DNA of 64,000 nt from Elusimicrobia bacterium RIFOXYA2_FULL_39_19 (GTDB lineage Bacteria; Elusimicrobiota; Endomicrobiia; CG1-02-37-114; XYA2-FULL-39-19). Below the pieces are notes generated by a model. That model did no database searches, was not told the origin of the DNA, and was given only the letters and a program-made list of their open reading frames with translations. Location of the stretch: positions 18,476 through 82,475 of the forward strand of contig MGVC01000005.1 in the NCBI GenBank assembly GCA_001800285.1, in the 5' to 3' direction. Below are positions 14,101 through 61,699 of this stretch, in pieces; position 1 is the first letter of the stretch, and every line of letters starts with the position of its first letter. Both the position numbers and the translations under genes were made by a program.

Positions 14101-17100
14101 CCTGCTGCATGTAGGAGTAAGTAATAGGCTGTGTGGTGCCTTCAAGTTGGTAATAAGCGGCAATATCCGTTAACTGCGCATAAACTTTCGGCGGTGATTT
14201 TTCTACTGCCCAGGTGGTGGTAACTATTTCAAAATTGGCCTGGGACACACCAATAGTTCCTGAAGTTTGTATAGACTGGTAACTCTGCAACCGTAACCCA
14301 AAATATGTACCGGTAGTTGCGCTGGTGGCTATGCGCACTGCAATGAAATACGTTTTAGGTAAAGTATTTACTGAAACTTCTGGTTTTACGCTTAAATTTC
14401 TGAAGTACCAGGCGTCAGTGCCCGCATCATACTCAGCATCACAAAGTTTAGTGTCTGTTGGTTGGCCGCCACTTACAAGTTCCGGGTCAAAGTAATAGTT
14501 GCCGCTTGCGTCATAGTAAAGACTCATCTTACTAATACTGCTGGAAGGCGTATTGCCAAATTTTTCTACTTTTATCTGTTCCAGTTTTTCTGTAAGATTG
14601 GCTTCCACAGGCAGGGTTACCATAGTAAGTCCGGCCATACCAAACGGCTGGAAGTTTTCTACAATATCCCCGTCACCCTGATACACTTTCTTAGAAATAA
14701 CTCTTGATAGATAATTAGAACCTCTCAACAAATTTTCCGGGTCTAATATCGGTGTTACTTTTATGCCTGAAGTTACCAGGTTCGCATCTGAATGTGCTGT
14801 TTCAACTCTTGTGCTGTCATTAGTCCAGCCGTACACTACACCATCCGCAGGATAATCCAGCGCCTGAGTAACAGGAGATGCATAATGAGTAGCGCTGATT
14901 TTTAGTGATTCCTGCATCTGGTTGATTACCTGCAACCCCTGCCAGACACCGCTGTCACTTTCTGTATAAGCATAATAGGTTGCACTGCCGGGCATAGCTC
15001 TTAGTGTTACTGCGGTAGTGGAGCCGGTATGTGCAAACTTTATTATACCTTTATAATACTGACCGTTGGTGCTATCGCCGGATGCCACATTACCAAACCG
15101 GTCTCTGGCTTTTACGGTAACCGTGCCGTTTGAATTTACCGGCAATGGATTTGTTAAGGGATAACTGTGGTGAATTGTAAAAAACCTTGCAGGAGCAGGA
15201 GTGATATACTGGTTCTGTGTTGCAGATACTAACTGTATTGAACCGCAGGTTCCCTCAGCTCTCAATGTACTGGTACCGGCTTTTGTATCAAAGAAATATA
15301 TGGAATGCTCTGAAGAACCCGGGGGTATAATACCCGGCAGGAAACCGCCCTCGCAAATACTGGGCCAGTCAGCGCTAAGCATTAAATTTTTTAAAGGGTT
15401 TTCACCGGCACGGGCAGAAGTTGAATTTGTACAGGTATAAACTATGCTTGTAGCATCAGAAGAAATAGTAACATTATCTGACTGGTCCCTTAACTGGATA
15501 GTTATCACTGTAACGGTTTGAACACGGTTTGAATAAGAGCTTAATGGAACAGGTAAAACGGCTGATGAAAACGGATTGTAGCCTTGCACGGAATATGTAG
15601 AAACAACACTTCCTAAATTTCCGGAGCCGGTATACGCAATGGTTGTACCAGCAATTAATCTTCTTGATTCCGTTATAAAAACAAAATGATGGGGGTTCCC
15701 CGCAACTACTGAATAAGTCTGCACAGCTACAGCCCAATCTGTCTTTGCCGGGTTCTGCGCAGTTATTTGAAAATTCCCCAGATTGGTATCTATCATGTAA
15801 AAACTGGTGGTGTCATCACCTATATTTAACGTAACAATATCAACCGCAGGTTTTGCTACCCACCCGGAAGTAATATTTGGCGAAGCAAACCTCACATTCC
15901 CTGTACCGGTAGAATTAAGGTCAAAGATACTCATAACTTCTTCACCTGTAATTACCGGTGACGGGTTGGAAAACTTGTCCTGTGTCTGCAGTAAAAAAGC
16001 TGATGATGTAGTACCGGCCGCCAATATCTGATGAGATGATATTATGGCCAGTTTCTTTATTGGTGATGCCGTTATCGGTACGTATTGGCCGGAGCCCGGT
16101 GTTTCCCAACTTCCGCTTGAAGCTTTTACATGAGGCATGGTGGAAGCAGCAATATTATATGGCGGATAAGTTTTTGATGCTTTTGTATCTGCATACCAGA
16201 ACTGGGTGGCATATTGGCCGGCTGAAATTGAAGCCGTTGAGGTGTGCATCCACGGTGAAGATGTAAGTGAGAAGGAATAATTTCTGCCGTATTCCGTAGT
16301 GGCAATAGTATCCACTTCGCTTTCAAACGTTAACCTGTGCAAATAATCTATGCGCAATGAATTACCTGCCCCGGAATCACTCTGCAGGTTCATGGTAGTG
16401 TCTACGTTTACAGCTTTCGGGTTGCCGTAAGTATCCTGTGTTTCTATTTCAAGCACCTGCAAGCTATTCTGGTTGTTATAAACTATACCCGCCAGTAACG
16501 GCAGTGTGGTTGAAGGAATAACATCAAAACCTACCTGAGTTATAGCGCCCGGGTTTACATTAAATGTTGTTGAACCAACATAGATACCATACTCAACAGA
16601 AGCTGTCCATTTACCTATTGACGGACGCGCAGGCAGAGCGGCGGTAGCCGTGCCCTGAGAACCGTCTTCGCCTGCAGGCCATGAAGCATACATATCTGAA
16701 TACCTGAATGATGCCTGTGAATTGGCTGCAGGTACCGGCCATACTGCCGCGGACCATATAGGTATAGCTACATCATACATGCTCAGCATAGTATCGGTAG
16801 TTTTATTCCAATATTTCTTCTGTGAATTTAGTACAGAAGGTGAATCAGTTTTCAGCTGGGTGCCGATAGAAAGAGAAACTATGTTTGTTTCACCCGTCGG
16901 GTTATTCCAGTAATCGCGTTTTTCAAAAGTAAATACGGTAGATTTTATGTTACCCGCAGAAGCTTCAATGTCTGACGGTGTAGTTACAAACTGGAAGCGG
17001 TATAAATCACCGCCGGTAGTCATAATGTTTACAGATTTACCTGTAATGGTTGCACCCGCAGCGGTAGATACCTGCACCTTGGCATAATGGCCTCCGGTAG

Positions 17101-20100
17101 TGGATACCTCATAGTATAATTCTTTGCCTAGGCCGCCCACTTCACCATTGCTGTCGGTTGTAGTAGAAGTAATTACATTGCCGGAAGCATCTTTTATAGT
17201 TCCTGAAGAACCAAATACATCCACTACACTTAATACCGCGGAAATATTTGAACTTGAAACCTGGTTTTCATAAGAGTCGGCAATAAACGCTTTTACCTGC
17301 TGACGGTTAGGCACGCCGCCGGAGATGCCCGCTTTTACATAGATCGGGTCGGTCCACGGGCTTGGTATAGCAAATGCAAACTTGCTGGGGTCTCCCGGCC
17401 TTACTTCTATTACCGGTCTGTTTGAATATCCTGACCTATTGGCATCTATCAGGGAATCTGTGCTCTGGCGCCAGTTTATCCAGCGGGTACCAGCCTTTTT
17501 TAGTTGAATGGTAAATAAGTGTGAACCGGCATCTGCGTCAGTAAACACATAGTGTTCTCCGCCGCTGCCGGGTAGAGGTTCTGGATTCTGCAGTGAATTA
17601 TCAAAGTCCGTAGGAGCAATTTCTGCCAAGAACTGCACTTCACCGGTGTATCTGGTGCTTCCGGTAGAACATATATTGTGGTATCTGTCTTTTACATTTA
17701 TTCTTACATTGTAATCTGAACCAGCATAAGCCCAGGTAGAGCCGCGCACAGGGTCAATATAGCTTGTACCCTGCATGTAGTAGGCGGCGTCCGGCCATAT
17801 TCTTATCTGGCTGGATTCTTTAGAAGTATATTTTACAGCCGCGGTTGACCAGTCAACCGACACGCAGGTCCAGGAAGAAGAAGCAGTCAACGGCCTTACG
17901 CTGAAGGCTCTTGAACCGAAAGCCAAGCACTGTATGGTTGGCTCAGAATCCTGATAATCCCAGGTGGTTACCGTGCAGGAAGGCATATCTACACCTGACA
18001 TAATCCTGTTATACCAGATATCTGTTAATACAACATCTATGTTAAAGGCATCCCCGGCTGTATGCACAGTTGGCTGGGTATCGGTCCTGCCGTAAGGAGC
18101 AATGTTCCATTTTCCGGGAACGTGGGTTTCACCCGGCACCACCACAAGTAAAAATGCCGGCGAAGATGGATTTACTGTAAACTGCCTGCTGCTGACATCT
18201 GTAATATATCTCGGGTCAGAACCATCAACATCCTTGGTCCAGAGCATATGCCAGGTAGCAGCAGTTTTGAGCTGTATTTGAAAAGTATTGCTGGCGCTTA
18301 TGTCGCCGAGTGGTGACGTGGATGAATTGGCATCATAAGGGTCATTGGTTTCTACCGTCACTTCAGGCATGGTTATTCCGGGTAGTGACGGAAATATTCC
18401 TTTATTATAAGTATTGTAGTAGTTATCTACTAAGTTTACTGTTACTTCAAACACAGTACCGGCAGTCTGGGTTACCGGAGAACCTGTTTTACCGTTAGCA
18501 GTGCTAACATTTAAACCCCATGCCGGCGTTTCACCAGGAAGTATTATCTGGAGATGGTTCGGAGTGCCCGGTAGTACAGTGAAAGTGGATACGGTATAAT
18601 CCGGTGCACTGTTTGGATATTTTGTATAAGTACCATAAAGTTCTTCCGCAACTGCATAGTGGTAAGTGGCGGCACGTTTTAAACCAGTAGTGAAACTGGC
18701 TGTCTTGTAACCCGGGTCTGTACCGGTAATTGTTATCTGAGCTGGTTCTACATTATAAGGATCCGTAGGAGTGTATAGAACAATGGTTCCCTCTGCACCG
18801 GATACAATATTGAAGTTGCTGTCTGTAATGGCCACAGTAACATCAAATGGGGCACCAGCGGTTTGTTGTGATGGACTGCCTGTTTTACCATAAGGTGAGT
18901 TCATGTCAAAGTTTTGGCCTGGTAAAAGAACCAGAAGTTTTGAAGCTGTGTTGCTAACAACCGGGACCTTTGAGCTGGGCTGGGAATTAACCATAATTCC
19001 GGGATATCCCTCACCTTCCACCCAGCTAAATGCCGACATTCTTATACGCCAGCCGGTATTGCTGGATGTTGAAAAAACCCATTTTTCAGAATCATCTAAA
19101 ATATATTGTCCGTTTGAAACCCATATACTTCTCCCAGTTACCTGCGGGTCGTTAGGGTCACCGTCTGCTCCATCAGACATAAGTGTTAGAGTAGGATTTT
19201 CATCAGTCTGGTTATAACATTGGTCCAGGCATAAAACAGTTGTTTTAAAACCCACACCAGCAACCTGTGCTGTTGGGTTGGAAGCTTCCGTTTTTCCCGG
19301 TTGAGAGCCGGTAACTTTACCGTCAACATGGGTTTCACCCGGTACCAATATCTGAATTCTGTAGGGAACATTTGTAGTAATGGCTATGCTCTGGGTATAA
19401 TCATATTTATAATTACTGCAATAATCTGTAGTTGCTGTGATGATAGTATTTTTCTTTGTTACAAGCGTAATGCCAAATGTCGTAGTCCCGGAAAAAAGAG
19501 TTTTTGTACTGGGGTGCGTGTCATATAAATCATCGGTAATTATGCTGACATTTATTCCGGTAGTAGTTACTGAATTGTAATAGTCATCACATGCATCTAC
19601 GGTTACATTAAACGATTCTCCCGCTTTATGGCTGGTTGGATAATTATTGGACATTCTGCCTCTTGTAGAAATATTACCGGCATCCGGTAATTCCCCTGGA
19701 GCAAGAATTCTCAATCTTTTAGCACTTCCTGGAATTATGTTAACAATATTTGAATCATATGTACCCAGGCTTCCGGTTGCCCTAACTGTCCAGGTGGAAG
19801 CAGTATTCATCATTACGTTATTCCACACATTCTGTCCCATAGTTAAGCCCTGGCTTCTGGAATAACTACAATAAGGGTCTGTTACCGTTACAGACACCCC
19901 TCCCATTACAGCAGTGGAACATAAGTTATAATAATTATCCGTAACACGCACAGTTACAGGAAACACTACACCAGCTGTCTGAAAACTAACGCTATAATTT
20001 TTTCCTCCGGTTCCGTCACCAATTGGCTGCTGGGTTACATTTTCTCCATAAGGAGGCTTGCCGGGAGCAGGCACTTCATTCGGCAAGATTACATGGTAAC

Positions 20101-20917
20101 GTGTAACTAAATTCGGATAAACCCTTATTTCAGAACTTGTACCGGTTGATAACCAGATATCGTTGCCATTATAATTAAGAGCTTCTGTTGGATATGCTTT
20201 TACATAATGCGTTGCATAACCTGTCAGACCTGCCATTTCTGCATTAAAAACAGTTATGGTTGTTATACTTGAACCATTAATCAAACAAACATAATTTGTT
20301 TTTGATCCATATTGATCGGTAGATTCAACATACACTATGGGGTTTGCGTCAGAAATAGTATTCCATTGTAAATCTGTGGCTTTTATTGTTATGGCAAATG
20401 GTTGGCCTGCAGTAAATCTTGAAATCGGTGTTCCTGATTTTCCAGTTGAAGAACCCGGATTTTGTGTTTCGCCGGGAACTAAAATAAGCAACTTTGATGG
20501 ATCGGAAAGCGGGTAGGCTGTTGTATTATTTGAAACACCTGAAAATAATTCCAAGGGTCCTGAAGAGACCCAGATTCTAAAATAGTATAACTTATCGCTT
20601 TGAAGGCCTGTTATTACGTAATTCTGTCTGTTCCCGGAATTAACAGAACCTGTTGATAATACCAGATTTCCGCTTGTGCCCGTACTCCAGGCAATACTTT
20701 CAAAAGTTGATTTTTGAATTTCATACCTGCTCCCAACGGGTATAGTAAATGGGCCTGGATAGGTCCAAATTAAACGGACCTCATAAGAGTTCTGACCGGT
20801 AACAGCCGAAAGATCAGTTACCGCTAAAGATTGAGCAAATATGTTTTGAATACTTATAACAAGTATAAGAATACAAAACATAATTCTGATATTTATCACT
20901 TTATTCTTAAACATCAT
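8183..20917 (-). CDS. Giant (4244 aa) secreted cell-surface repeat protein / putative adhesin with a T9SS-type C-terminal sorting domain
   Basis: Uninterrupted 12.7 kb ORF with a GAGGAAAAATG RBS. Features: signal peptide (aa 1-28), an FN3-like segment (aa 33-120), two internal module families (listed separately below), Ig-like segments, and a C-terminal LVYPNP...GGYLAVIVSSTGERKVFKLGIIK. Confidence 0.9.
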   Translation of the reverse strand: MMFKNKVINIRIMFCILILVISIQNIFAQSLAVTDLSAVTGQNSYEVRLIWTYPGPFTIPVGSRYEIQKSTFESIAWSTGTSGNLVLSTGSVNSGNRQNYVITGLQSDKLYYFRIWVSSGPLELFSGVSNNTTAYPLSDPSKLLILVPGETQNPGSSTGKSGTPISRFTAGQPFAITIKATDLQWNTISDANPIVYVESTDQYGSKTNYVCLINGSSITTITVFNAEMAGLTGYATHYVKAYPTEALNYNGNDIWLSTGTSSEIRVYPNLVTRYHVILPNEVPAPGKPPYGENVTQQPIGDGTGGKNYSVSFQTAGVVFPVTVRVTDNYYNLCSTAVMGGVSVTVTDPYCSYSRSQGLTMGQNVWNNVMMNTASTWTVRATGSLGTYDSNIVNIIPGSAKRLRILAPGELPDAGNISTRGRMSNNYPTSHKAGESFNVTVDACDDYYNSVTTTGINVSIITDDLYDTHPSTKTLFSGTTTFGITLVTKKNTIITATTDYCSNYKYDYTQSIAITTNVPYRIQILVPGETHVDGKVTGSQPGKTEASNPTAQVAGVGFKTTVLCLDQCYNQTDENPTLTLMSDGADGDPNDPQVTGRSIWVSNGQYILDDSEKWVFSTSSNTGWRIRMSAFSWVEGEGYPGIMVNSQPSSKVPVVSNTASKLLVLLPGQNFDMNSPYGKTGSPSQQTAGAPFDVTVAITDSNFNIVSGAEGTIVLYTPTDPYNVEPAQITITGTDPGYKTASFTTGLKRAATYHYAVAEELYGTYTKYPNSAPDYTVSTFTVLPGTPNHLQIILPGETPAWGLNVSTANGKTGSPVTQTAGTVFEVTVNLVDNYYNTYNKGIFPSLPGITMPEVTVETNDPYDANSSTSPLGDISASNTFQIQLKTAATWHMLWTKDVDGSDPRYITDVSSRQFTVNPSSPAFLLVVVPGETHVPGKWNIAPYGRTDTQPTVHTAGDAFNIDVVLTDIWYNRIMSGVDMPSCTVTTWDYQDSEPTIQCLAFGSRAFSVRPLTASSSWTCVSVDWSTAAVKYTSKESSQIRIWPDAAYYMQGTSYIDPVRGSTWAYAGSDYNVRINVKDRYHNICSTGSTRYTGEVQFLAEIAPTDFDNSLQNPEPLPGSGGEHYVFTDADAGSHLFTIQLKKAGTRWINWRQSTDSLIDANRSGYSNRPVIEVRPGDPSKFAFAIPSPWTDPIYVKAGISGGVPNRQQVKAFIADSYENQVSSSNISAVLSVVDVFGSSGTIKDASGNVITSTTTDSNGEVGGLGKELYYEVSTTGGHYAKVQVSTAAGATITGKSVNIMTTGGDLYRFQFVTTPSDIEASAGNIKSTVFTFEKRDYWNNPTGETNIVSLSIGTQLKTDSPSVLNSQKKYWNKTTDTMLSMYDVAIPIWSAAVWPVPAANSQASFRYSDMYASWPAGEDGSQGTATAALPARPSIGKWTASVEYGIYVGSTTFNVNPGAITQVGFDVIPSTTLPLLAGIVYNNQNSLQVLEIETQDTYGNPKAVNVDTTMNLQSDSGAGNSLRIDYLHRLTFESEVDTIATTEYGRNYSFSLTSSPWMHTSTASISAGQYATQFWYADTKASKTYPPYNIAASTMPHVKASSGSWETPGSGQYVPITASPIKKLAIISSHQILAAGTTSSAFLLQTQDKFSNPSPVITGEEVMSIFDLNSTGTGNVRFASPNITSGWVAKPAVDIVTLNIGDDTTSFYMIDTNLGNFQITAQNPAKTDWAVAVQTYSVVAGNPHHFVFITESRRLIAGTTIAYTGSGNLGSVVSTYSVQGYNPFSSAVLPVPLSSYSNRVQTVTVITIQLRDQSDNVTISSDATSIVYTCTNSTSARAGENPLKNLMLSADWPSICEGGFLPGIIPPGSSEHSIYFFDTKAGTSTLRAEGTCGSIQLVSATQNQYITPAPARFFTIHHSYPLTNPLPVNSNGTVTVKARDRFGNVASGDSTNGQYYKGIIKFAHTGSTTAVTLRAMPGSATYYAYTESDSGVWQGLQVINQMQESLKISATHYASPVTQALDYPADGVVYGWTNDSTRVETAHSDANLVTSGIKVTPILDPENLLRGSNYLSRVISKKVYQGDGDIVENFQPFGMAGLTMVTLPVEANLTEKLEQIKVEKFGNTPSSSISKMSLYYDASGNYYFDPELVSGGQPTDTKLCDAEYDAGTDAWYFRNLSVKPEVSVNTLPKTYFIAVRIATSATTGTYFGLRLQSYQSIQTSGTIGVSQANFEIVTTTWAVEKSPPKVYAQLTDIAAYYQLEGTTQPITYSYMQQGESDIGMLRVAFSAPMFQGAISEIKVGRTGTGQDYDIVGVKIYMDGKDSSPNDGRIDAGSNPNGALEPGGDDALTNWVPFTDRSAQCMLSTPQLIDCTSRYFFITYKIENSATPGYTHGAQINGITLLEGAMQSYASIESTKVVVTATVDELNVYNVNKQETSVSSVNFTVTGVVTQGDANITVMKLTMATVQRTGLWGGLKLDRSIYRNATSGVPEGTLSLPTDVDKIQLWYDSNNDGMFEVTDSMVVDQNPQFSLMEFPVSELAESINESASVIEVADIGVFFPPFCSVPKAPGKLIIDDNGDPSKLEIVTYTGVDEDNNLFTGVVRGQDKTTAKSHTSGAIVSGPARLDIVGDVSGVQEIRQTPKNYFITFDYSPVCTVDASLKLGVEIPSTGYFTINSPDYMGNVQAQVGLRSPRNNQWIGTEWAATGWTESYVSQVKEYPDDVLVKPTDYIYTQYLVQGSVDNVMAQFTLETDLSEALWYAIRIYSTGTASYDGGAVQEEVPVVKVWYDANNDRMLNKSPVTPYFYAGTDYDVLVGSGTFSNAGDALATLIRFNSSKVQEIITAARAGVAKSQRYFITYDISETALTTNPRTGDPKNLGVRLTAESFPTDEDNLVQTEDDFISEPDNLDDIGLPWKSTLKTIASSPRTIFVKSAPIFSDDDPKETGTLSTYEVPRLSGNLSAGADVLYLFSNDSLGRPTPTLAIPASGYAVIESEIIKYTGKTANSITGITRGVLGSFAASHSSGVVFGVQVTQGVKNFAVEKLDLWADGFQVEMGTITITRTTPSYLLFGADSDLLNIKVYRDDNGNSRLDRFASPEYRGIVTADTLVGSGVYDNSRGRLYLNDPAINRGYILVTTTPTAYFITYDVSPSAKFSHPLISWQNEIIGAEITGEDKIGVNHPSEEMRHRVSTYVPIGLGEIPAFPIKTANMPIVATVDTVYITPSSELMSTVERYAENVPVIQLSMKTNRNTALWESIKVNLTGTGVDADVSKIKIWKVITSTSEYSVFESTVMINSQPCGLITYGSDTFTEKAATLLLKTEDNYYDARTITATLQTYYLTYDISQFAQISKTVGASILDKTYFTVQVPDGVEFLWPTAPFITQTAEIKEVQVAVSATVSDSAYYVHFASGAFQSQSNVEMMRLKLRTDKSNCNWDAIQVERTGTGGPLDQTKPEGRNSDVKYIKIFRDANYNNILDADDQCISEAETKISSLCSDGVYYNYISIYTPLPFDLIVESTITLTGTFPTGQQQLLVKAGDEIMRYSLAGTTITPTGPKPFLRIVERGKYGTVRKQLNSGDLIKKVDMFDLSNDLSKTKMIYLTNIQKLNPSNQTYFIAYDMGDNAVAGNTIGLKIPDSGWIKLRLPHDVSPLLVLETNTGVQLGNSTSFDYCKTSLLPVTPIGLIVKSENYAPVYTKYGSKNVPLMLLRLKTNTNHALLTNITLKQTGTVETSLIPGKGQGDFSCLSIWKEATSAAFPYGDGKFDATTDVFISSIPHSTGANPNMNFVSGMASLSIESTGLYISTAEVKLYIVGDVGYTDLSMNSTENDYTGIRLEEFSGLTIVPQTMVSDKNNTFPYKSSEFRITNISNYVDLPKVEITAPKEGEKISGNRITLTSEITSGESSDIRYVYFQYRKASEDEWHNIYSTGSLFTNPDATYPYNYFWDVSNESDFLQGNYQLRCVAYDKTGNYDNNPETVNVVIDRISPDMEEKIQNGVPEKTQKIYNNVENSIKLADINKKHFTEIIIPEGALSGSFDLVKVAINPLSIPSSDRKYKSAGMFRSIELASGQKTLLKNVTIIIAYADEDNDGIIDDTDMREENIKILYYDESSRIWKKDSETTVDKINNTASIQVGHFSLFGIFAAASNNLDNVLVYPNPYVPYDGADDNGIPYSQGNSQSGIVFENLTEAVKIYIYTVSGELVFDSYIESSGTFNWDVKNNNGSELASGGYLAVIVSSTGERKVFKLGIIK
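8186..8494 (-). other. C-terminal sorting domain (T9SS type A CTD / FlgD-Ig-like), aa 4142-4244 of the giant protein
   Basis: NLDNVLVYPNPYVP...VKIYIYTVSGELVFDSY...FNWDVKNNNGSELASGGYLAVIVSS...KVFKLGIIK. This matches the PNP start, the strand pattern and the terminal K-x-x-K typical of Por-secretion tails. Confidence 0.6.
9398..14644 (-). repeat. Eight divergent ~180-290 aa protein modules (aa ~2092-3840)
   Basis: Each module has [LM]xLx(8-12)Wxx[IL]xVxxTGTG..., then [IV]K[IVL][WY]xDxNxN/DGxxD, and ends in x-YF[IL]TYD[IV]S....G. The YF motif occurs at aa 2189, 2373, 2641, 2851, 3138, 3333 and 3608. Asp/Asn-rich loops occur at aa 2134-2144, 2313-2329, 2503-2514, 2783-2794, 3077-3089, 3460-3476 and 3750-3760. 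Confidence 0.7.
17768..20491 (-). repeat. Seven tandem ~120-140 aa protein modules (aa ~143-1050)
   Basis: Motif: LxI[LV][LVA]PGE-x(5-20)-GK[TS]G.P..QTAG..F.VTV...D..[YW]N. It starts at aa 143, 275, 402, 520, 660, 789 and 922. Examples: LLILVPGETQNPG..GKSGTPISRFTAGQPFAITIKATDLQWN and HLQIILPGETPAW..GKTGSPVTQTAGTVFEVTVNLVDNYYN. Confidence 0.75.
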
Positions 20918-21168: not shown

Positions 21169-21234
21169 GAGTTTACGACACTGTAACCTTACTGCGGTTT
21201 TTGGCGGCCTGGCGGTCATTGGACATTCCTCTTT

Positions 21235-21340
21235 TTTAGGCGTCTGCGCTTCAACTCCCTAGAACCGTTGGAGTCAGGCGTCCTTTAGACCCATAGCTTT
21301 GCGCCCGTCGGTTTCCCGGCGTTTGCTTTTATCAATTTTT
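21235..21340 (-). promoter_or_regulatory. c-di-GMP-I (GEMM-I) riboswitch-like aptamer
   Basis: The minus strand reads AAAAGCAAACGCCGGGAAACCGACGGGCGCAAAGCUAUGGGUCUAAAGGACGCCUGACUCCAACGGUUCUAGGGAGUUGAAGCGCAGACGCC. It lines up with the Vibrio Vc2 aptamer as I recall it (GGGCAAACCAUUCGAAAGAGUGGGACGCAAAGCCUCCGGCCUAAACC...). Shared elements: GCAAAC, a 6 bp hairpin capped by a GAAA tetraloop, G(A)CGCAAAGC, and a GGxCUAAA receptor-like segment. The long 3' helix closes as GGGUCU/AGAC(G)CC. Confidence 0.65.
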
Positions 21341-29257: not shown

Positions 29258-29272
29258 TTGCTTTCCCTTGCC

Positions 29273-29333
29273 CCGTCTGCCTTTGCAGGACGGATAATTC
29301 TAATGCTCTAAGCTCTAATTTCTAATGCTCTAC
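29273..29333 (-). repeat. Intercistronic hairpin plus an array of five UAG-containing 7-8 nt units
   Basis: The minus strand after the stop codon reads TAG AGCAT TAG AAAT TAG AGCT TAG AGCAT TAG AAT. Next comes CCGTCCTGC-AAAG-GCAGACGG (an 8 bp stem with one bulge), and then the RBS of the large-subunit gene. Confidence 0.5.
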
Positions 29334-43897: not shown

Positions 43898-43959
43898 TCT
43901 GTCTTCACCTTTCCTTTAAGTATTTTAAATCCAATGAGAAGCGTGTTAAAACAGTATGC

Positions 43960-43974
43960 GCAATTAGTTTGCCA
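43960..43974 (-). promoter_or_regulatory. Sigma54 (-24/-12) promoter candidate
   Basis: Minus strand TGGCAA-ACTAA-TTGC, matching the spacing of TGGCAC-N5-TTGC. It lies ~63 nt upstream of the ketosynthase ATG. Confidence 0.55.
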
Positions 43975-43993
43975 GGCACCTTCCTATATAAAC

Positions 43994-44047
43994 AAAAAAA
44001 GAGAAGCATACCTATTTGTGCATCAAGTACAAATAGGTATGCTTCTC
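43994..44047 (-). terminator. Strong intrinsic terminator after the sigma54 activator gene (structurally bidirectional)
   Basis: Perfect 19 bp stem GAGAAGCATACCTATTTGT / ACAAATAGGTATGCTTCTC (44001-44047) with a 9 nt loop. It is followed on the minus strand by TTTTTTT. Confidence 0.8.
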
Positions 44048-44073
44048 AAAATGTTTTTAAAACTCTAAAACTT

Positions 44074-51481: not shown

Positions 51482-54477
<2,996 letters not shown>

Positions 54478-54503
54478 TCCCGGTAATTTTCTAAACAAAA
54501 AAA

Positions 54504-54595
54504 GTGATTAGGTGATTACGTGTTTGGTTAAATGTTTAAATTTATTTCATCCTTCACTAACCACCTAATAACTAATCACATAACCACTTAATCAC
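54504..54595 (+). repeat. Intergenic palindromic element E1 (pyrG-livK spacer), built of 7-8 nt tandem units
   Basis: 5' arm GTGATTAG GTGATTAC GTGTTTGG TTA. 3' arm CACTAAC CACCTAAT AACTAAT CACATAAC CACTTAAT CAC, which contains no G. The arms pair with G:U wobbles in + strand RNA. Confidence 0.7.
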
Positions 54596-54627
54596 CGCTA
54601 TGTATAAATCATTTGTAGGAGACACCG

Positions 54628-55740
54628 ATGTATAAATTAATCTCAGTTTTGTTTTTAGGCTTAATACTTATCGCAGGCTGTGCCAAACAGGATAAAAATG
54701 TAATTAAAGTTGCCCTTGCAGGGCCCTTAACCGGAGATATTGCCGCTATGGGGCAGGGCATGAAAAAAGCCATAGAGATTGCCGTAGAAGAAGCAAACCA
54801 GTCAGGCGTTTTGAAAGATAAAAAATTTCAGGCAGTTATTTTTGATGACCGCGCAGACCCCAAAGAAGCGGTAAGCGTAGCAAACCAGATAGTTTCAGAC
54901 CCGCAGATTTACGGCATTGTAGGCCACTTAAACAGCGGCTGTTCCATACCTGCCAGCCAGATTTATGCAAAATACAATCTTGTTATCATCACACCCGCTT
55001 CCACAAACCCCAAACTTACACAACAGGGACTAAAAAATGTTTTCAGAGTCTGCACCACGGATGATGTGCAGGGAAGCGCCGCCGCCAATTATGTTATTGA
55101 TAAATTAAAAATAAAAAATGTTTCCATAATACACGACAAAACCCCTTACGGCCAGGGCATAGCAGAAAACTTTAAAGCAACCTTTGAAAACCGCAAAGAC
55201 AAAGTGTTAAGTTATGACGGCATAAATACGGGAGATAAAGATTTCAAAGCCCTGCTTACAAAAATAAAAACCTTTAAACCCCAGCTGATTTATTTCGGCG
55301 GTGTTTACAGCGAATATGGCCTGCTTTCCAAGCAGGCAAAAGAACTGGGGCTTAACGCCGTATTTTTCAGCGATGACGGATCTTCATCACCGGAATATAT
55401 TAAAATTGCCGGCAGTGCTTCAGAAGGCAACTATGTTTCCATGATAGGCATTCCTCCGGCTAAACTGAAAAAAGCAAAGGCATTTTTAGATACCTTTGCT
55501 TCCAAATACCCGGGCACTGACTTACAGCCGTATGACACCTACACCTATGAAACCTCAAAAATACTTATTGACGCTATTGTAAAAACAAACATGGACAAAT
55601 CAAAAATTGCCGATTATCTTGCAACGGTTAAATTTGACGGAATTCTAGGCATAACTTCTTTTGATGCAAACGGCGATACGCTGAACAAATCTATCAGTAT
55701 TTACAAAGCAAAAAACGGCAAGTTTGAATACTGCGAATAA
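54628..55740 (+). CDS. livK: Branched-chain amino acid ABC transporter substrate-binding lipoprotein
   Basis: Lipobox LIAGC and a type I periplasmic binding fold pattern (ALAGPLTGD..., HLNSG). Confidence 0.85.
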   Translation: MYKLISVLFLGLILIAGCAKQDKNVIKVALAGPLTGDIAAMGQGMKKAIEIAVEEANQSGVLKDKKFQAVIFDDRADPKEAVSVANQIVSDPQIYGIVGHLNSGCSIPASQIYAKYNLVIITPASTNPKLTQQGLKNVFRVCTTDDVQGSAAANYVIDKLKIKNVSIIHDKTPYGQGIAENFKATFENRKDKVLSYDGINTGDKDFKALLTKIKTFKPQLIYFGGVYSEYGLLSKQAKELGLNAVFFSDDGSSSPEYIKIAGSASEGNYVSMIGIPPAKLKKAKAFLDTFASKYPGTDLQPYDTYTYETSKILIDAIVKTNMDKSKIADYLATVKFDGILGITSFDANGDTLNKSISIYKAKNGKFEYCE

Positions 55741-55781
55741 ATTTCCCGATTACATCGAAAATAATCAGACAATAAATTTGT

Positions 55782-55819
55782 TTGATAATTGATAAATGCT
55801 TTTTCTTATCAACTTATCA
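55782..55819 (+). repeat. Intergenic palindromic element E2 (livK-livH spacer)
   Basis: TTGATAA TTGATAA ... CTTATCAA CTTATCA: tandem 7-8 nt units forming a hairpin. Confidence 0.55.
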
Positions 55820-55845
55820 TCATCCCAACATATCAACCGTCTCTC

Positions 55846-56736
55846 ATGTTCATCCAGCAACTAATTAACGGACTTACACTCGGCAGCATTTATGCACTGA
55901 TTGCTCTCGGCTACACCATGGTTTACGGCGTTTTATTAATGATAAATTTTGCTCACAGCGAAATTTTTATGATAGGCGCCTACATCGGCCTTTGGGCTTT
56001 AACCGCCATTCCTGCCTTTGCCTCCTTTACTATTACCGGTTTCATAATAACTTTTCTGGTTGTACTGCTTTTTTCAGGCCTGCTGGCTGTTTCGGTAGAA
56101 AAATTAGCATACAAACCGCTCCGCCAGGCCCCGCGCCTTTCCCCCTTAATAAGCGCTATAGGCGTTTCCATAGTTTTACAGAACCTCATTATGCTTTTTG
56201 TCAGCAACCAGTCAATGCCTCTTCCGGAATTTAAAACCACCCGTTATCAGATATTCAGTGCTGAAGTAGATACCCTGCAGATATTTATTTTTTGTTTTTC
56301 TATTGCACTTATGCTTCTGCTGAACCTTTTTATCAGTAAAACAAAGTTCGGCAAAGCTATGCGCGCCACAGCACACAGCCACAGCGTTTCCCAGCTGATG
56401 GGTATAAATTCAAGCTCTATGATAGCTATGGTATTTTTTATCGGCGGCGCTTTAGGCGGCATTGCCGGCATGTTAAACGGCATGTACTACGGAAGTATAA
56501 AATATAATATGGGTTTTTTCCCTGGTATAAAAGCATTTACCGCGGCGGTGCTGGGAGGTATAGGAAATGTTAAAGGCGCTATGCTGGGTGGTTTTCTGTT
56601 AGGCCTGATTGAAACCTTTTCCGCCGGCTACATATCATCCCAGAACAAAGATGTAATCACTTTCTGCGTACTTATACTCATGCTTGTCTTTAAACCTACC
56701 GGAATTTTAGGTGAAAATGTAACTGAAAAAGTATGA
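55846..56736 (+). CDS. livH: Branched-chain amino acid ABC transporter permease
   Basis: MFIQQLINGLTLGSIYALIALGYTMVYG is a typical LivH start. The listed ORF begins 57 nt earlier, at a TTG inside repeat E2. Confidence 0.9.
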   Translation: MFIQQLINGLTLGSIYALIALGYTMVYGVLLMINFAHSEIFMIGAYIGLWALTAIPAFASFTITGFIITFLVVLLFSGLLAVSVEKLAYKPLRQAPRLSPLISAIGVSIVLQNLIMLFVSNQSMPLPEFKTTRYQIFSAEVDTLQIFIFCFSIALMLLLNLFISKTKFGKAMRATAHSHSVSQLMGINSSSMIAMVFFIGGALGGIAGMLNGMYYGSIKYNMGFFPGIKAFTAAVLGGIGNVKGAMLGGFLLGLIETFSAGYISSQNKDVITFCVLILMLVFKPTGILGENVTEKV

Positions 56737-57713
56737 AATTTAAAAACATTGCTATTATTACAGCCTTTATCACCGCGATTGTACTGCCCTTAATCATGCA
56801 GGCGTCAGCCAATTATTACGCCATACACGTGCTTGGGTTGCTGGGTATCTACGCTATATTGTGTGTCGGGCTTAATATTACTATAGGTTATACCGGCTTG
56901 CTGGATTTAGGGTTTATGGCATTCTATGCTATAGGCGCTTATATCGGAATAATTCTTAGTGCGAAGGGCATTTCATTCTGGTATATTATTCCTATCAGTC
57001 TGTTTATCGGCGGTACTTTTAGATATTTACTTGGCGCACCGGTATTACGTTTACGCGGTGATTATCTTGCCATAGTAACACTGGCGTTTGGTGAAATTAC
57101 CCGCCTACTATTAAACAACCTGGATTTTTTAACTAACGGGCCTAAAGGCCTGCCCCGCGTAGGTGAAACGGTTTTACCTATCAGTATTTTTTCCTTTACT
57201 TTAAGAAACGATATTCATTTCTACTACCTTATCGTATTTTTTCTGGCGCTTGCAATTATTGTCAGCTACCGGCTTGAGCACTCGCGCCTTGGCAGGGCGT
57301 TTGTAGCTATACGGGAAGATGAAACAGCCGCAGAACTTTCCGGCATAAACGTATCAAACACAAAACTGCTGGCTTTTGTAATAAGCGGTATGTTCGGCTC
57401 TCTGGCAGGAACCATTTACGCGCACTGGATAGGTTTTATTTCACCGGAATCTTTTACTTTCTGGGAATCCATATTTCTGGTGTGCATGCTGGTTATCGGC
57501 GGAATGGGCAGTATTTCTGGCGCCATACTGGGCGCCTTTATACTTGCCGGCATACCGGAATTTCTGCGTCCGGTGCTGGGCTCGGGTTTTATAGATTACA
57601 GAATGCTTATTTTCGGGCTGCTGCTTGTAGTTGTAATTATTTTCAGGCCCCAGGGTTTGCTTCCTTCAAAAAGAAGAAACCTGGAGTTGCGTATGAATAA
57701 AAACAGTGAATAA
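56733..57713 (+). CDS. livM: Branched-chain amino acid ABC transporter permease
   Basis: Polytopic protein with GYTGLLDLGFMAFYAIGAY, typical of LivM. It overlaps livH by 4 nt. Confidence 0.9.
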   Translation: MKFKNIAIITAFITAIVLPLIMQASANYYAIHVLGLLGIYAILCVGLNITIGYTGLLDLGFMAFYAIGAYIGIILSAKGISFWYIIPISLFIGGTFRYLLGAPVLRLRGDYLAIVTLAFGEITRLLLNNLDFLTNGPKGLPRVGETVLPISIFSFTLRNDIHFYYLIVFFLALAIIVSYRLEHSRLGRAFVAIREDETAAELSGINVSNTKLLAFVISGMFGSLAGTIYAHWIGFISPESFTFWESIFLVCMLVIGGMGSISGAILGAFILAGIPEFLRPVLGSGFIDYRMLIFGLLLVVVIIFRPQGLLPSKRRNLELRMNKNSE

Positions 57714-57727
57714 ATTATTTCAAACAC

Positions 57728-57794
57728 GGTGATTAGTGGTTACGTGATTAGTAACATCTTTGCTAATCACTTAAACACATAACCACTTTATTAG
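57728..57794 (+). repeat. Intergenic palindromic element E3 (livM-livG spacer)
   Basis: GGTGATTA GTGGTTAC GTGATTAG taacatctttg CTAATCAC ttaaa CACATAAC CAC. Confidence 0.65.
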
Positions 57795-57816
57795 AAATAA
57801 CCAGACTAATAACCTT

Positions 57817-58575
57817 ATGTTATTATCCATTAATTCAGTAAACAAACATTTTGGCGGATTAAGTGCACTTGCAGACATGAACATGTCTGCTGCCGATAAA
57901 GAAATTGTCGGACTTATCGGCCCCAACGGCGCTGGTAAAACTACGCTATTTAACGTAATTACCGGCGTATATCCTATTGATAGCGGTGAAATAGTATTTA
58001 AAAACAAAAATATTCACAACCATAAACCGCATAAAATAGTAAAAAACGGCATAGCCAGAACTTTCCAGAACATCCGCCTGTTTTCAAACATGACGGCCCT
58101 GGAAAATGTAATGGCTGGCAGGCACTGCCGCACCAAATCAGAACTTTTCCCGGCATTACTGCGCACAAAAGCGTTTTCAAAAGAAGAAAAAGAAATACAG
58201 GACTCTTCAAAAGAAATACTGGATTTCGTAGGGCTTCTTAAATCCGGCAATGAGCTGGCAAAAAACCTTGCTTATGGCCAGCAGAGGAAACTGGAAATTG
58301 CTCGCGCCCTGGCCACAAACCCGTCATTGCTTCTTTTAGATGAACCCACGGCGGGAATGAACCACAGCGAATGCAACGGTTTGATAGAACTTATATACAA
58401 AATCCGTGAAAAAAATACGGCTATCATAGTCATTGAACACCAGATGAACGTAATAATGAACATTTCTGATAAAATAGTTGTAATGGATTACGGTGAAAAA
58501 ATAGCAGAAGGCAGCCCCGCACAAATTCAGAAAAATCCGAAAGTTATAGAAGCGTATCTTGGCAGGAATAACTAA
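57817..58575 (+). CDS. livG: Branched-chain amino acid ABC transporter ATP-binding protein
   Basis: Walker A GPNGAGKTT, LAYGQQRKLEIARAL, Walker B LLLLDEP. Confidence 0.9.
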   Translation: MLLSINSVNKHFGGLSALADMNMSAADKEIVGLIGPNGAGKTTLFNVITGVYPIDSGEIVFKNKNIHNHKPHKIVKNGIARTFQNIRLFSNMTALENVMAGRHCRTKSELFPALLRTKAFSKEEKEIQDSSKEILDFVGLLKSGNELAKNLAYGQQRKLEIARALATNPSLLLLDEPTAGMNHSECNGLIELIYKIREKNTAIIVIEHQMNVIMNISDKIVVMDYGEKIAEGSPAQIQKNPKVIEAYLGRNN

Positions 58576-58578
58576 AAA

Positions 58579-58637
58579 GGTGGATAAGTGGTTGGTAACA
58601 CCTTAACTAACCACATAGTGACTAAACACTTAATCAC
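58579..58637 (+). repeat. Intergenic palindromic element E4 (livG-livF spacer)
   Basis: GGTGGATAA GTGGTTGG TAACACC TTAA CTAACCAC ATAGTGAC TAAACAC TTAATCAC. The 3' half is nearly identical to that of E5. Confidence 0.65.
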
Positions 58638-58661
58638 TATCTTAGGCATCAAAAAACAATT

Positions 58662-59384
58662 ATGGGAAATTATCTTTTAGAGATTCGGGACATTTATACT
58701 TACTACGATAAAATAGCCGCGCTTAAAGGCGTGTCTCTTAACCTGCAAAAGGGTGAGATAGTAGCCATTATCGGTGCCAACGGTGCCGGAAAAACCACGC
58801 TAATAAACACTATTTCAGGTTTAATTCATCCGGCACAGGGCCGGATATTATTTGAAAACAATGTAATCAGCGGTATGCCTGCATACAAAATTGCCCGTAA
58901 AGGCATAGTGCAAATACCGGAAGGGCGCAAGCTTTTTCCTAAACTAACTGTGCTTGAAAATATGGAGTTGGGCGCTTTTTCGCAGAATAATAAAAAAGAA
59001 ATAAATGAGAACATTGAAAAGATGTATGCTTTGTTTCCCATTTTAAAACAAAGAAGCAAACAGTATGCAGGCACCATGAGCGGCGGAGAACAGCAAATGC
59101 TGGCTCTGGCGCGCGGGCTTATGGCAAAACCGAAAGTCCTGCTAATTGATGAGCCGTCAATGGGACTGGCGCCCGTACTAGTAGAAAAAACTTTTCAGAT
59201 AATAAAAGAAATTAATGCGCAGGGCATAGCAATTCTGCTGGTTGAGCAAAATGCAAAAAAGTCCCTGGAAATTGCCAGCCGTGCCTATGTAATTGAAACA
59301 GGAAAGATAATAATGACTGATAACGCACATAAACTGCTTGAAAATGATATAATCAAAAAAGCTTACTTGGGTGAAATGCTTTAA
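58662..59384 (+). CDS. livF: Branched-chain amino acid ABC transporter ATP-binding protein
   Basis: Walker A GANGAGKTT, MSGGEQQMLALARGL, Walker B VLLIDEP. Confidence 0.9.
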   Translation: MGNYLLEIRDIYTYYDKIAALKGVSLNLQKGEIVAIIGANGAGKTTLINTISGLIHPAQGRILFENNVISGMPAYKIARKGIVQIPEGRKLFPKLTVLENMELGAFSQNNKKEINENIEKMYALFPILKQRSKQYAGTMSGGEQQMLALARGLMAKPKVLLIDEPSMGLAPVLVEKTFQIIKEINAQGIAILLVEQNAKKSLEIASRAYVIETGKIIMTDNAHKLLENDIIKKAYLGEML

Positions 59385-59397
59385 TTGGATAAAAACC

Positions 59398-59517
59398 GTG
59401 ATTAGGTGATTGCGGGTAGCACCCTTGTATCATCTAATAAAAGAAAAAATAAGGGTTACGTGGTTAGGTGTTTGGCAACACCTTAACTAACCACCTAATG
59501 ACTAAACACTTAATCAC
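59398..59517 (+). repeat. Intergenic palindromic element E5 (livF-nfeD spacer), composite
   Basis: GTGATTAG GTGATTGC GGGTAGCACCC ... GGGTTAC GTGGTTAG GTGTTTG GCAACACC TTAA CTAACCAC CTAATGAC TAAACAC TTAATCAC. The outer GTGATTAGGTGATT pairs with AAACACTTAATCAC. Confidence 0.65.
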
Positions 59518-59538
59518 TATTCCAGAAATGAGGTTGAA

Positions 59539-60876
59539 ATGAAAAAAATAACGTTTTTTGTTTGTTTTATCTTTAACTACTTACTACTTACCACTTCCGG
59601 ATTTTTGGTTTCCCAGCTTCACGCAGAAACCTACCTGATGGAAATTGACGGAATTATTAACCCTGTAGTAGCGGATTACATATCTGACGGGATGAAACAA
59701 ACCAAAGAAGGTGATACTGTAATAATCAGGATGAACACTCCCGGCGGTCTGATGGATTCCATGCAGCAGATAATAAAATCTATGCTTAATTCCCCTAATC
59801 CGGTAATAGTGTGGGTTGGCCCTCCCGGTTGCAGAGCGGCTTCAGCCGGTGTATTTATTACTATGGCAAGTGATATTGCCTGCATGGCTCCCGAAACAAA
59901 CATAGGGGCAGCACACCCCGTACAAATGGGCGGAGGCGGCACACCTGCGGCGCCCGGAGCAGAAAACAAAAAGAACCCTTCGCAGGATAAAATAATGGAA
60001 GGCAAAATTACTAATGACGCGGCAGCCTATATGCGCTCCATTGCCAGTGAAAAAAACCGCAACTGGCGCTGGGCAGAGTTATCCGTTACAAAAAGTTTGT
60101 CCATCACATCCCGCGAAGCTCTGGACAAAAAAGTAATTGAATATATTTTTTCTAATATGGATGATCTGCGCGCAAAACTTAACGGGAAAAAAATTAAAAA
60201 ACTTAAAAAAGAATTTAAAATAGATACAAAGAGTGAAATTATAAATATTCAAATGAAACCTTTTAAAAAATTCCTGAATATGATAGCACACCCGAATATT
60301 GCTTTCATTTTTCTCACTTTGGGTATCTACGGCCTTATTTATGAGTTTTCCTCACCTGGCATAGGGTTGGGCGCAATAGTAGGCGGCAGCTGCCTTATAC
60401 TTGCATTTTTTTCCATGCAGTTATTACCGGTAAACACAGCAGGACTGCTTATGCTGATACTGGGGCTTATACTTATGGCCATTGATGTGTTTAACCCTAC
60501 CGTTATTTTAACTATTGGCGGGATTGCTTCCTTTATAATGGGCGCATTAATGCTTTTTGATTTTCCCGGAAATTTTATTTCTGTTTCTTTGAGTCTTATC
60601 TTTACCGTTGCCCTTGTTACGGTACTGCTTTTTATATTTGTGCTGAGATCAATTGTAAAAGTACGCAAAACAAAAGTAACTACCGGCAAAGAAGGCCTGA
60701 TAGGTGAAAAAGGCATTGCTAAATCTGTTTTTAGCGGCGTAAATACCCGCGGTATGGTTTTTGTACAGGGAGAGCTGTGGAGTGCAGAGCTGACCGAACC
60801 CTCAGAAATAAAAGAGGGCGATACTGTAGAAGTAGTAAATGTAGAAAGCAATTTGTTAAAAATCAAGAAACCGTAA
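59539..60876 (+). CDS. nfeD: NfeD-family membrane-bound serine protease (ClpP-like N-domain, TM region, C-terminal OB domain)
   Basis: Signal/TM start, then INPVVADYI...RMNTPGGLMDSM...GCRAASAGVFI, central TM helices, and a C-terminal beta-rich tail, GELWSAE...GDTVEVVNVE. Confidence 0.8.
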   Translation: MKKITFFVCFIFNYLLLTTSGFLVSQLHAETYLMEIDGIINPVVADYISDGMKQTKEGDTVIIRMNTPGGLMDSMQQIIKSMLNSPNPVIVWVGPPGCRAASAGVFITMASDIACMAPETNIGAAHPVQMGGGGTPAAPGAENKKNPSQDKIMEGKITNDAAAYMRSIASEKNRNWRWAELSVTKSLSITSREALDKKVIEYIFSNMDDLRAKLNGKKIKKLKKEFKIDTKSEIINIQMKPFKKFLNMIAHPNIAFIFLTLGIYGLIYEFSSPGIGLGAIVGGSCLILAFFSMQLLPVNTAGLLMLILGLILMAIDVFNPTVILTIGGIASFIMGALMLFDFPGNFISVSLSLIFTVALVTVLLFIFVLRSIVKVRKTKVTTGKEGLIGEKGIAKSVFSGVNTRGMVFVQGELWSAELTEPSEIKEGDTVEVVNVESNLLKIKKP

Positions 60877-60883
60877 TACGGAA

Positions 60884-60933
60884 GTCGTCAGTGGTAAGTA
60901 ATTACTATTTACCACTTACAATTTACCATTCAC
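60884..60933 (+). repeat. Intergenic palindromic element E6 (nfeD-stomatin spacer), heptamer variant
   Basis: GTCGTCA GTGGTAA GTAATTA CTATTTA CCACTTA CAATTTA CCATTCA C. GTGGTAA pairs with TTACCAC. Confidence 0.55.
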
Positions 60934-60952
60934 GGCATTCAGGAGGTAAGAC

Positions 60953-61699
60953 ATGTTTTCAGGACCAAGTATTACATTAGTAATCATCGGCGTAATTATA
61001 CTGATGAATGCAGTACGCGTAGTAAATGAGTATGAAAGAGGTGTAATTTTCAGATTGGGCAGGTTAATTGGCGCAAAAGGCCCGGGTTTGTTTTTTCTTA
61101 TTCCTATTGTAGACAGAATGATAAAAATCAGCCTAAGAACAACCACTATGGACATCCCCACCCAGGAAGTTATTACCAAAGATAACGTGCCGGCTAAAGT
61201 AAATGCTGTTTGTTATTTCAGGGTTGTTGACCCTAATAAAGCAGTTGTAAGCATTGAAAATTATATTTATGGTACAAATCAAATTGCACAAACAACACTA
61301 AGAAGTGTTCTAGGCCAGGTAGAACTGGATACACTTTTAGGGGAAAGAGAACAGATTAACCTTAAACTTCAGCAGATTATTGATCAGCAGACTGAACCTT
61401 GGGGCATAAAGGTAAGCGTAGTTGAAGTTAAAGATGTGCAGATACCTGAACAAATGCAGAGAGCCATAGCCCGCCAGGCAGAAGCTGAAAGAGAAAGGCG
61501 TGCAAAAGTTATCAATGCTGAAGGCGAATTTCAGGCATCCACCAAACTGGCGGAAGCAGCGGAAATTATCGGCAAAAATCCGGCGGCTATCCAGCTAAGA
61601 TTTTTACAGACAGTTACTGAAGTTGCCTCAGAAAAAAGCACAACCCTGGTACTTCCTATACCAATAGACCTTTTAAAAGCTTTCACTGAAAAAAGATAA
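60953..61699 (+). CDS. SPFH/Band 7 stomatin-like protein (partner of NfeD)
   Basis: [31 protein letters not shown]...[20 protein letters not shown] and a coiled-coil C-terminus, [12 protein letters not shown]. Confidence 0.85.

Follow-up and report, generated by a model that had tools for sequence, protein, structure and literature searches.

Within a 64,000-nucleotide stretch of contig MGVC01000005.1 of Elusimicrobia bacterium RIFOXYA2_FULL_39_19 (hereafter the window), a string of eight + strand genes running from pyrG to a stomatin gene (52882..61699) carries long imperfect hairpins in all six of its spacers. The open reading frames (ORFs) are those of pyrG (52882-54477), livK (54628-55740), livH (55846-56736), livM (56733-57713), livG (57817-58575), livF (58662-59384), nfeD (59539-60876) and a band-7/stomatin gene (60953-61699), assigned from the Pfam families of the genes called on an identical contig, L001; numbers of this form denote loci retrieved from other genomes and viral contigs for comparison. 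The livH and livM genes overlap by 4 nt, and the remaining spacers are referred to, together with their hairpins, as E1 (pyrG-livK, 150 nt), E2 (livK-livH, 105 nt), E3 (livM-livG, 103 nt), E4 (livG-livF, 86 nt), E5 (livF-nfeD, 154 nt) and E6 (nfeD-stomatin, 76 nt). In each of them the hairpin starts 0-26 nt after the stop codon. Independent assemblies are 100 % identical over the region, except for a short break within livG in one scaffold that falls in none of the hairpin spacers, and an assembly artefact is therefore excluded; as all retrievable contigs of the region are identical, no variation in unit number between strains was seen. Judged by their sequences, E1, E3, E4 and E5 form a four-member repeat family and are not a set of independent terminators.

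An earlier reading of the window, made from its sequence only, had taken the six spacers to hold one family of palindromes, with 5′ arms of tandem GTGRTTA(N) units and 3′ arms of complementary (N)TAAYCAC units. A hairpin is indeed present in all six, but these units, like membership of a single family, are confined to E1, E3, E4 and E5. E1 (54504..54595, +) contains an inverted repeat of 27 nt that is 81 % complementary, with a 5′ arm that reads GTGATTAG GTGATTAC GTGTTTG GTTA, a loop of 38 nt and a 3′ arm that reads TAAC TAATCAC ATAACCAC TTAATCAC; relative to the aligned copies it has one extra 8-nt unit and an 18-nt insertion in the loop. E3 (57715..57800, +; −25.3 kcal/mol) has a core at 57728-57787 that is lengthened by an outer helix (TTATTTC/GAAATAA), and it is one 7-nt unit short compared with the other aligned copies. 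E4 (58579..58640, +), recognized from its inverted repeat and fold, combines a shortened 5′ arm with a complete 3′ arm of four units. E5 (59398..59517, +), with inverted repeats and a fold of −40.4 kcal/mol and 38 pairs, is shown by the alignment to be composite: about 45 nt of inserted sequence (about 59412-59458), itself with an ACCCTT/AAGGGT hairpin, separate a complete inner element (59454-59517) from two outer 5′ units (59398-59411). Since the copies differ by whole 7-8 nt units, replication slippage is indicated. The tandem construction of the arms is real but modest, as Tandem Repeats Finder (TRF) reports 2.4 copies of period 8 in E1, 2.3 copies of period 15 in both E4 and E5, and 3.9 copies of period 8, at 69 % match, in the 3′ arm of E2; the arrays are short and degenerate, with 2-4 units per arm, and every one of them pairs with an inverted counterpart.

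The family is defined by similarity that extends beyond the shared unit. With each element as an nhmmer query, E1 matches E5, E4 and E3, E3 matches E5 and E4, and E4 matches E5 (E = 1.3e-11), in every case with the better match in the + orientation. E1 (54556..54579, +), E4 (58606-58629) and E5 (59486-59509) also share, without mismatch, a 24-nt signature, ACTAACCACMTARTRACTAAWCAC; these are three matches in the window where 0.00 are expected by chance even if three mismatches are allowed. Of the 61 aligned positions in the 3′ halves of E4 and E5, 51 are identical, and a core of about 48 nt contains just three differences, which upholds both their previously noted near-identity and the existence of a true repeat family. 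E2 and E6 found only themselves as nhmmer queries and have no detectable link to the four. From their sequences they appear to be independent small palindromes of the same architecture and other units: E2 (55783..55819, +) pairs TTGATAA with TTATCAA units (or, in shorter form, TGATAA with TTATCA) over 13 bp at −8.1 kcal/mol, and E6 (60871..60935, +), which overlaps the nfeD stop codon, pairs GTGGTAA with TTACCAC units in an inverted repeat of 30 nt that is 70 % complementary (−21.4 kcal/mol).

All the copies found lie within 5 kb. The nhmmer searches returned no further match in the 64-kb window, and no copy was found in another 6 kb of the source contig, so that the search covered about 70 kb of the genome in total. 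GTGRTTA occurs 30 times in the 64 kb, compared with 17 expected, and 17 of the 30 occurrences fall within spacers E1, E3, E4 and E5; the unit forms no other cluster in the window. Scanning metagenome contigs with the 24-nt signature gave no match, although that scan did not return the source locus itself either. We note that the leaders that follow the hairpins of livG (57788-57816), livF (58638-58661) and livH (55820-55845) are A-rich and have no recognizable Shine-Dalgarno sequence, and that one is present for livK (AGGAG), nfeD (GAGG) and the stomatin gene (AGGAGG).

The six elements are extragenic, imperfect, hairpin-forming palindromes, as are the repetitive extragenic palindromic (REP) sequences of other bacteria. 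Relative to dinucleotide shuffles, the + strand z-scores of E1 to E6 are −2.8, −2.3, −5.8, −3.5, −3.9 and −3.3, and apart from the small E2 the fold energies span −19 to −40 kcal/mol with stems of 24-38 bp. The − strand folds nearly as well (z −2.0 to −4.6). It had been proposed that many mismatched arm positions can form G:U pairs in RNA of the + strand but not of the − strand, and that the elements consequently function as sense-strand RNA; this is contradicted by the minimum-free-energy folds, in which E1 to E6 have 2, 0, 2, 2, 4 and 2 G:U pairs on the + strand and 6, 1, 3, 1, 1 and 4 on the − strand (12 versus 16 in total), and in which the − strand gives the more stable structure for E1 (−27 versus −22 kcal/mol), E2, E3 and E6. 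Because a palindrome with GTGRTTA/TAAYCAC arms is alike on both strands, the order of its arms is also uninformative on orientation. The covariation check that had been suggested lent no support to a conserved RNA structure, with compensatory changes at none of the 15 pairs in the consensus fold of the four copies and a covariation term of +0.12. Compensatory changes and a sense-strand preference, the marks of a structured cis-regulatory RNA, were both absent from these elements. Nothing in the region reaches the gathering score of any Rfam family, and a permissive scan gave only weak chance matches, namely mir-279 at 27 bits (threshold 56) and snoZ163, which agrees with the original impression that the unit did not belong to the described REP, BIME or ERIC families.

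Termination signals are equally absent. The stems are A+T-rich and are followed by sequences such as CGCTATG, TTATTAG, TATCTTA, TATTCCA and CATTCAG, and the spacers contain neither T-runs nor predicted terminator-like sites, bearing out the earlier remark that no U tract follows the hairpins; an intrinsic terminator is ruled out on these grounds. An evident terminator of the same genome, at 43898-44073, does carry a T-run. No promoter-like sites were predicted on the + strand of the six spacers. The stretch of E1 that had been likened to a rut site does exist, as a run of 62 nt without G (54535-54596, 29 % C) that is the longest on the + strand of the window, but it is base-paired and is a by-product of the repeat, arising because the unit itself contains no G. 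Neither this arm nor the supposed strand bias should be over-interpreted. We see no evidence that the elements serve as a dedicated sense-strand regulatory RNA, as terminators or as an array of protein-binding sites, and of the REP-like or regulatory role that had been considered, the REP-like placement (extragenic and directly 3′ of stop codons) is retained whereas dedicated regulation is unsupported.

Comparison with related liv operons shows that the string can do without the elements. The closest LivK homologue (69 % identical) is encoded at locus L008, which is syntenic, with PyrG (74 %) upstream and NfeD (79 %) downstream; its successive spacers are 46 nt, 3 nt, an overlap, 4 nt, 1 nt and an overlap (range −4 to 46 nt), none of which holds a hairpin. 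The window elements are therefore lineage-specific, recent and dispensable for the operon, and since L008 has no such spacers they are not an integral regulatory part of it. At L356 (LivK 67 %) the livK-livH spacer is also short (3 nt). Other related liv operons do contain short-unit repeats: at L007 two neighbouring spacers hold tandem-unit palindromes, built from (CTGAAGR)n/(YCTTCAG)n and from units of the TATAGGTC type, and the livK-livH spacer of L357 (5665-5745) has a hairpin of (GNGATTAG)n/(CTAATCNC)n units with marginal similarity to E1 (E = 0.006). One-way heptamer arrays are found at L356 (2069-2185, GTTCATA-type) and L005 (11123-11185, TATACAG-type). In the L007 operon three genes are also inserted between livK and livH (9178-11896); their CTD10, MC6/MC7 and DUF2326 domains are characteristic of conflict or defence systems.

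Similar units are widespread outside these operons. When one genome per species was searched, three successive TAAHCAC units were found in at least 116 stretches from many phyla, mostly one-way arrays among the matches listed, and hairpin elements of the same unit were seen in Omnitrophota, Thiotrichales, Betaproteobacteria, Gemmataceae, Bacteroidota, Desulfobacterota and another Elusimicrobia metagenome-assembled genome (MAG). In viral contigs, scrambled octamers of matched composition gave 64, 60 and 46 tandem-triple stretches versus 67 for the real unit; recurrence of the unit across phyla is therefore no evidence of homology, and the unit is not special. Cross-phylum homology of the GTGATTA unit is rejected on this ground and because whole elements have no significant nhmmer similarity; BLAST searches of E5 against plasmids and of E1 against phages also gave no match. 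The Thiotrichales MAG T3Sed10_123 (62 % G+C) has a dispersed element resembling a miniature inverted-repeat transposable element (MITE), in which GTGRTTA-unit arms surround a conserved G+C-rich core, CGGCGCGYGTCG...TCTGCAAC...CCCGCGAC (L091; L175, 1225-1490; L176, 2679-2903).

A unit-independent scan of all retrieved loci, for TRF arrays of period 6-9 with their reverse complement within 220 nt downstream, yielded 54 non-redundant tandem-unit palindromes with many different units; examples are at L261 (932-7386), L297, L083 and L156 (2296-2365). One phage contig has six of them in 8 kb, with different units in adjacent spacers. In the prokaryote loci 11 lie between convergent, 14 between co-directional and 3 between divergent genes, and none is inside an ORF, a placement that is typical of REPs and other 3′-end hairpins.

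We favour, with confidence slightly better than even, the reading that E1, E3, E4 and E5 are a recent, locally amplified family of palindromes akin to MITEs and to REPINs (REP doublets forming hairpins), which grow by unit slippage and act as passive intercistronic stem-loops. One lineage-specific, non-coding imperfect palindrome of about 60-120 nt would have entered a pyrG-livKHMGF-nfeD string that was ancestrally compact, and would then have been copied among neighbouring spacers in a single orientation. Its arms may lengthen and shorten by whole 7-8-nt units through replication slippage, their symmetry probably being maintained by template switching. In the polycistronic mRNA a long stem-loop would follow soon after each stop codon, taking the place of the translational coupling observed in the related L008 operon, and would serve at most as a generic barrier to 3′ exonucleases or as a double-stranded processing site, neither as an intrinsic terminator nor as a strand-specific riboregulator. 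The six long spacers of a normally compact transporter operon would then represent recent repeat insertions and not liv-specific regulators. Several observations weigh against this interpretation. With the census spanning about 70 kb, a genome-wide dispersed family and strict restriction to the locus are both unproven; no target-site duplication, transposase or REP-associated tyrosine transposase (RAYT) was seen that would account for the copying; the same type of unit in the livK-livH spacer of L357 may point to a link with liv operons of longer standing; and the occurrence of hairpins in six consecutive spacers, when many other spacers of the window have none, could reflect selection for operon function.

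Selection of that kind is the essence of what we consider an unlikely but by no means far-fetched alternative, in which the hairpins are adaptively kept as intercistronic stabilizers or differential-expression elements that set the ratios of LivK, LivHM, LivG, LivF and NfeD, by blocking 3′-5′ decay or as RNase III sites. The REP between malE and malF is an intercistronic stem-loop that stabilizes the upstream mRNA, and the hairpins described here likewise form stable structures without a U tract directly after stop codons in a transporter operon. Their position just past the stop codon in all six spacers speaks for this explanation, stems of 24-38 bp suffice for double-strand-specific processing, comparable palindromes occur in the L007 and L357 liv operons, and the bias towards 3′ ends holds across genomes (11 convergent versus 3 divergent). 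The difference from malE-malF is that the hairpin after the binding-protein gene, where a stabilizer is most expected, is E2, the weakest of the six; moreover, the syntenic L008 operon works without any spacer, and neither covariation nor strand preference was found. An effect on transcription itself, through terminators without U tracts or through Rho-dependent attenuators acting via the G-free, C-containing 3′ arms and dividing the string into separately controlled units, is in our view improbable. It would be in keeping with the stability of the hairpins, with the 62-nt run in E1 and with the many tandem-unit palindromes found elsewhere between convergent genes; however, no T-runs or terminator-like sites follow the stems, whereas evident terminators of this genome have T-runs, the C content of the run is only 29 %, and, because the G-free arm is paired with a G-rich arm that is transcribed earlier, it would not be exposed.

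The recurrence of one unit in four spacers might alternatively mark a binding array, whose GTGRTTA/TAAYCAC units would be recognized by an unnamed sequence-specific protein that acts on DNA or RNA and controls the genes jointly. Some other genomes hold dispersed arrays of this unit at many loci (at least seven stretches in a Desulfosudaceae MAG and at least four in a Thiotrichales MAG), and the intergenic TAACTGA heptamer arrays of Beggiatoaceae, which are also found in Cyanobacteria and Bacteroidetes, have been proposed to be protein-binding sites (MacGregor, 2015; PMC4679880). That study reports a single indirect repeat among 170 sets and, as cited there, long simple sequence repeats with units of 5-11 nt were described by Mrazek (2007). 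Such repeats share with the present elements an intergenic location, length variation by whole units and a patchy distribution across phyla, as well as units of 7-8 nt, but they are one-way direct arrays, and here each arm has 2-4 degenerate units and forms a hairpin with an arm of the reverse complement. Cyanobacterial short tandemly repeated repetitive (STRR) heptamers are likewise short-unit intergenic repeats, with the same likenesses and the same difference. A binding array is nevertheless quite improbable, given that scrambled octamers are about as frequent as the unit, that units differ between neighbouring phage spacers and in E2 and E6, that the degenerate units of the family recur at uneven intervals of 7, 8 or 15 nt, and that the window encodes no candidate protein.

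Finally, the elements resemble REPs and REPINs (Bertels & Rainey, 2011; PMC3116915): both are short, imperfect, extragenic palindromes at the 3′ ends of genes, fold into long hairpins, have a species-specific sequence and lack target-site duplications. The elements described here differ in that their arms are tandem 7-8-nt units instead of a unique REP core; four copies, all within 5 kb, were seen in the about 70 kb searched, where REPs number tens to hundreds dispersed in a genome. True REPIN analogues, mobilized in trans by a Y1 (RAYT/IS200-like) transposase encoded elsewhere in the genome, would explain hairpin doublets without target-site duplication and the common orientation of all copies, and the MITE-like family with such arms in the Thiotrichales MAG is in line with this. 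REP head sequences read GT[AG]G. The GTG[AG] start of the unit resembles this head (compare the REP sequences of PMC3116915, Table 1). Against mobilization in trans, the arms contain no internal REP palindrome, the copies seen in about 70 kb are confined to 5 kb, and no Y1 transposase (RAYT) gene was found in the 64-kb window. At L102 and L105, the small ORFs that lie between separated arms of similar type lack Pfam matches and show no relationship to one another; they are not Y1 transposases, and a RAYT-like gene in this position is rejected. We consider mobilization of this kind very improbable. The likeness to MITEs lies in the terminal inverted arms, the small size, the lack of coding capacity and the presence or absence between related genomes; however, reading of the sequences that flank E1, E3, E4 and E5 revealed no target-site duplication, no cognate transposase was found, and the inverted repeats are here internally repetitive. 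The core sites of integron attC elements have the form RYYYAAC...GTTRRRY. Reading of the sequence leads us to reject an attC identity for the present hairpins: here it is the GTT-type arm that leads, and the flanking genes belong to a conserved operon and are not cassettes.

Of the by-products of this analysis, the wider class of tandem-unit palindromes, with its polarity, is the most interesting. The G-rich, C-poor arm is 5′, and the C-rich arm 3′, on both strands in 42 of the 46 palindromes with a compositional skew (42 versus 4; binomial p = 5e-9), and it comes first in all six hairpins of the window. Among palindromes with units unlike the search pattern the ratio is 14 versus 3, or 11 versus 3 when counted by locus (p = 0.06). 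An exception within the GTGNTTA family is found at L135 (2418-2511), and hairpin-pattern scans of viral contigs gave no matches for either polarity and hence have no bearing on the question. This G-first polarity is an unexplained regularity. A first arm rich in G and U could, under selection, keep a C-rich, G-poor stretch from being exposed to Rho in either direction of transcription, or the polarity may stem from the strand chemistry of a mobilizing enzyme of the Y1 type. Should an unbiased census uphold it, the polarity would provide a simple rule open to testing and would bear on how bacteria tolerate long hairpins within and between transcription units, whether by avoidance of Rho or through the mechanism of mobilization. 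It is conceivable, though we put it forward only tentatively and think it unlikely, that the liv elements are one instance of a widespread and apparently unnamed class of self-expanding intergenic palindromes, with arms of 7-8-nt units of almost any sequence, that is represented in eight or more bacterial phyla as well as in phages, lies at the 3′ ends of genes and obeys this polarity rule. More generally, the data illustrate how short-unit slippage and palindromy may together give rise to hairpin elements that turn up repeatedly in different phyla and in phages.

Three further observations were made in the course of this work. In Chryseolinea sp. H1M3-3, a gene at L142 (362-760, −) for a 132-aa 23S-rRNA-intervening-sequence (IVS) protein (PF05635, E = 2e-31) is flanked by (GTGTTTA)n ... 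(TAAACAC)n inverted arms, an arrangement that resembles an IVS stem outside rRNA. Elsewhere in the window, the spacer at 29258-29329 (−) contains reiterated TTAGA(A/G)-type units (AGCATTAGAAATTAGAGCTTAGAGCATTAGAA), another short-unit array in the same genome, and a cyclic di-GMP-I riboswitch (21200-21337, −; 61 bits, E = 1.5e-9) is located upstream of a 4244-aa ORF (8183-20917, −).

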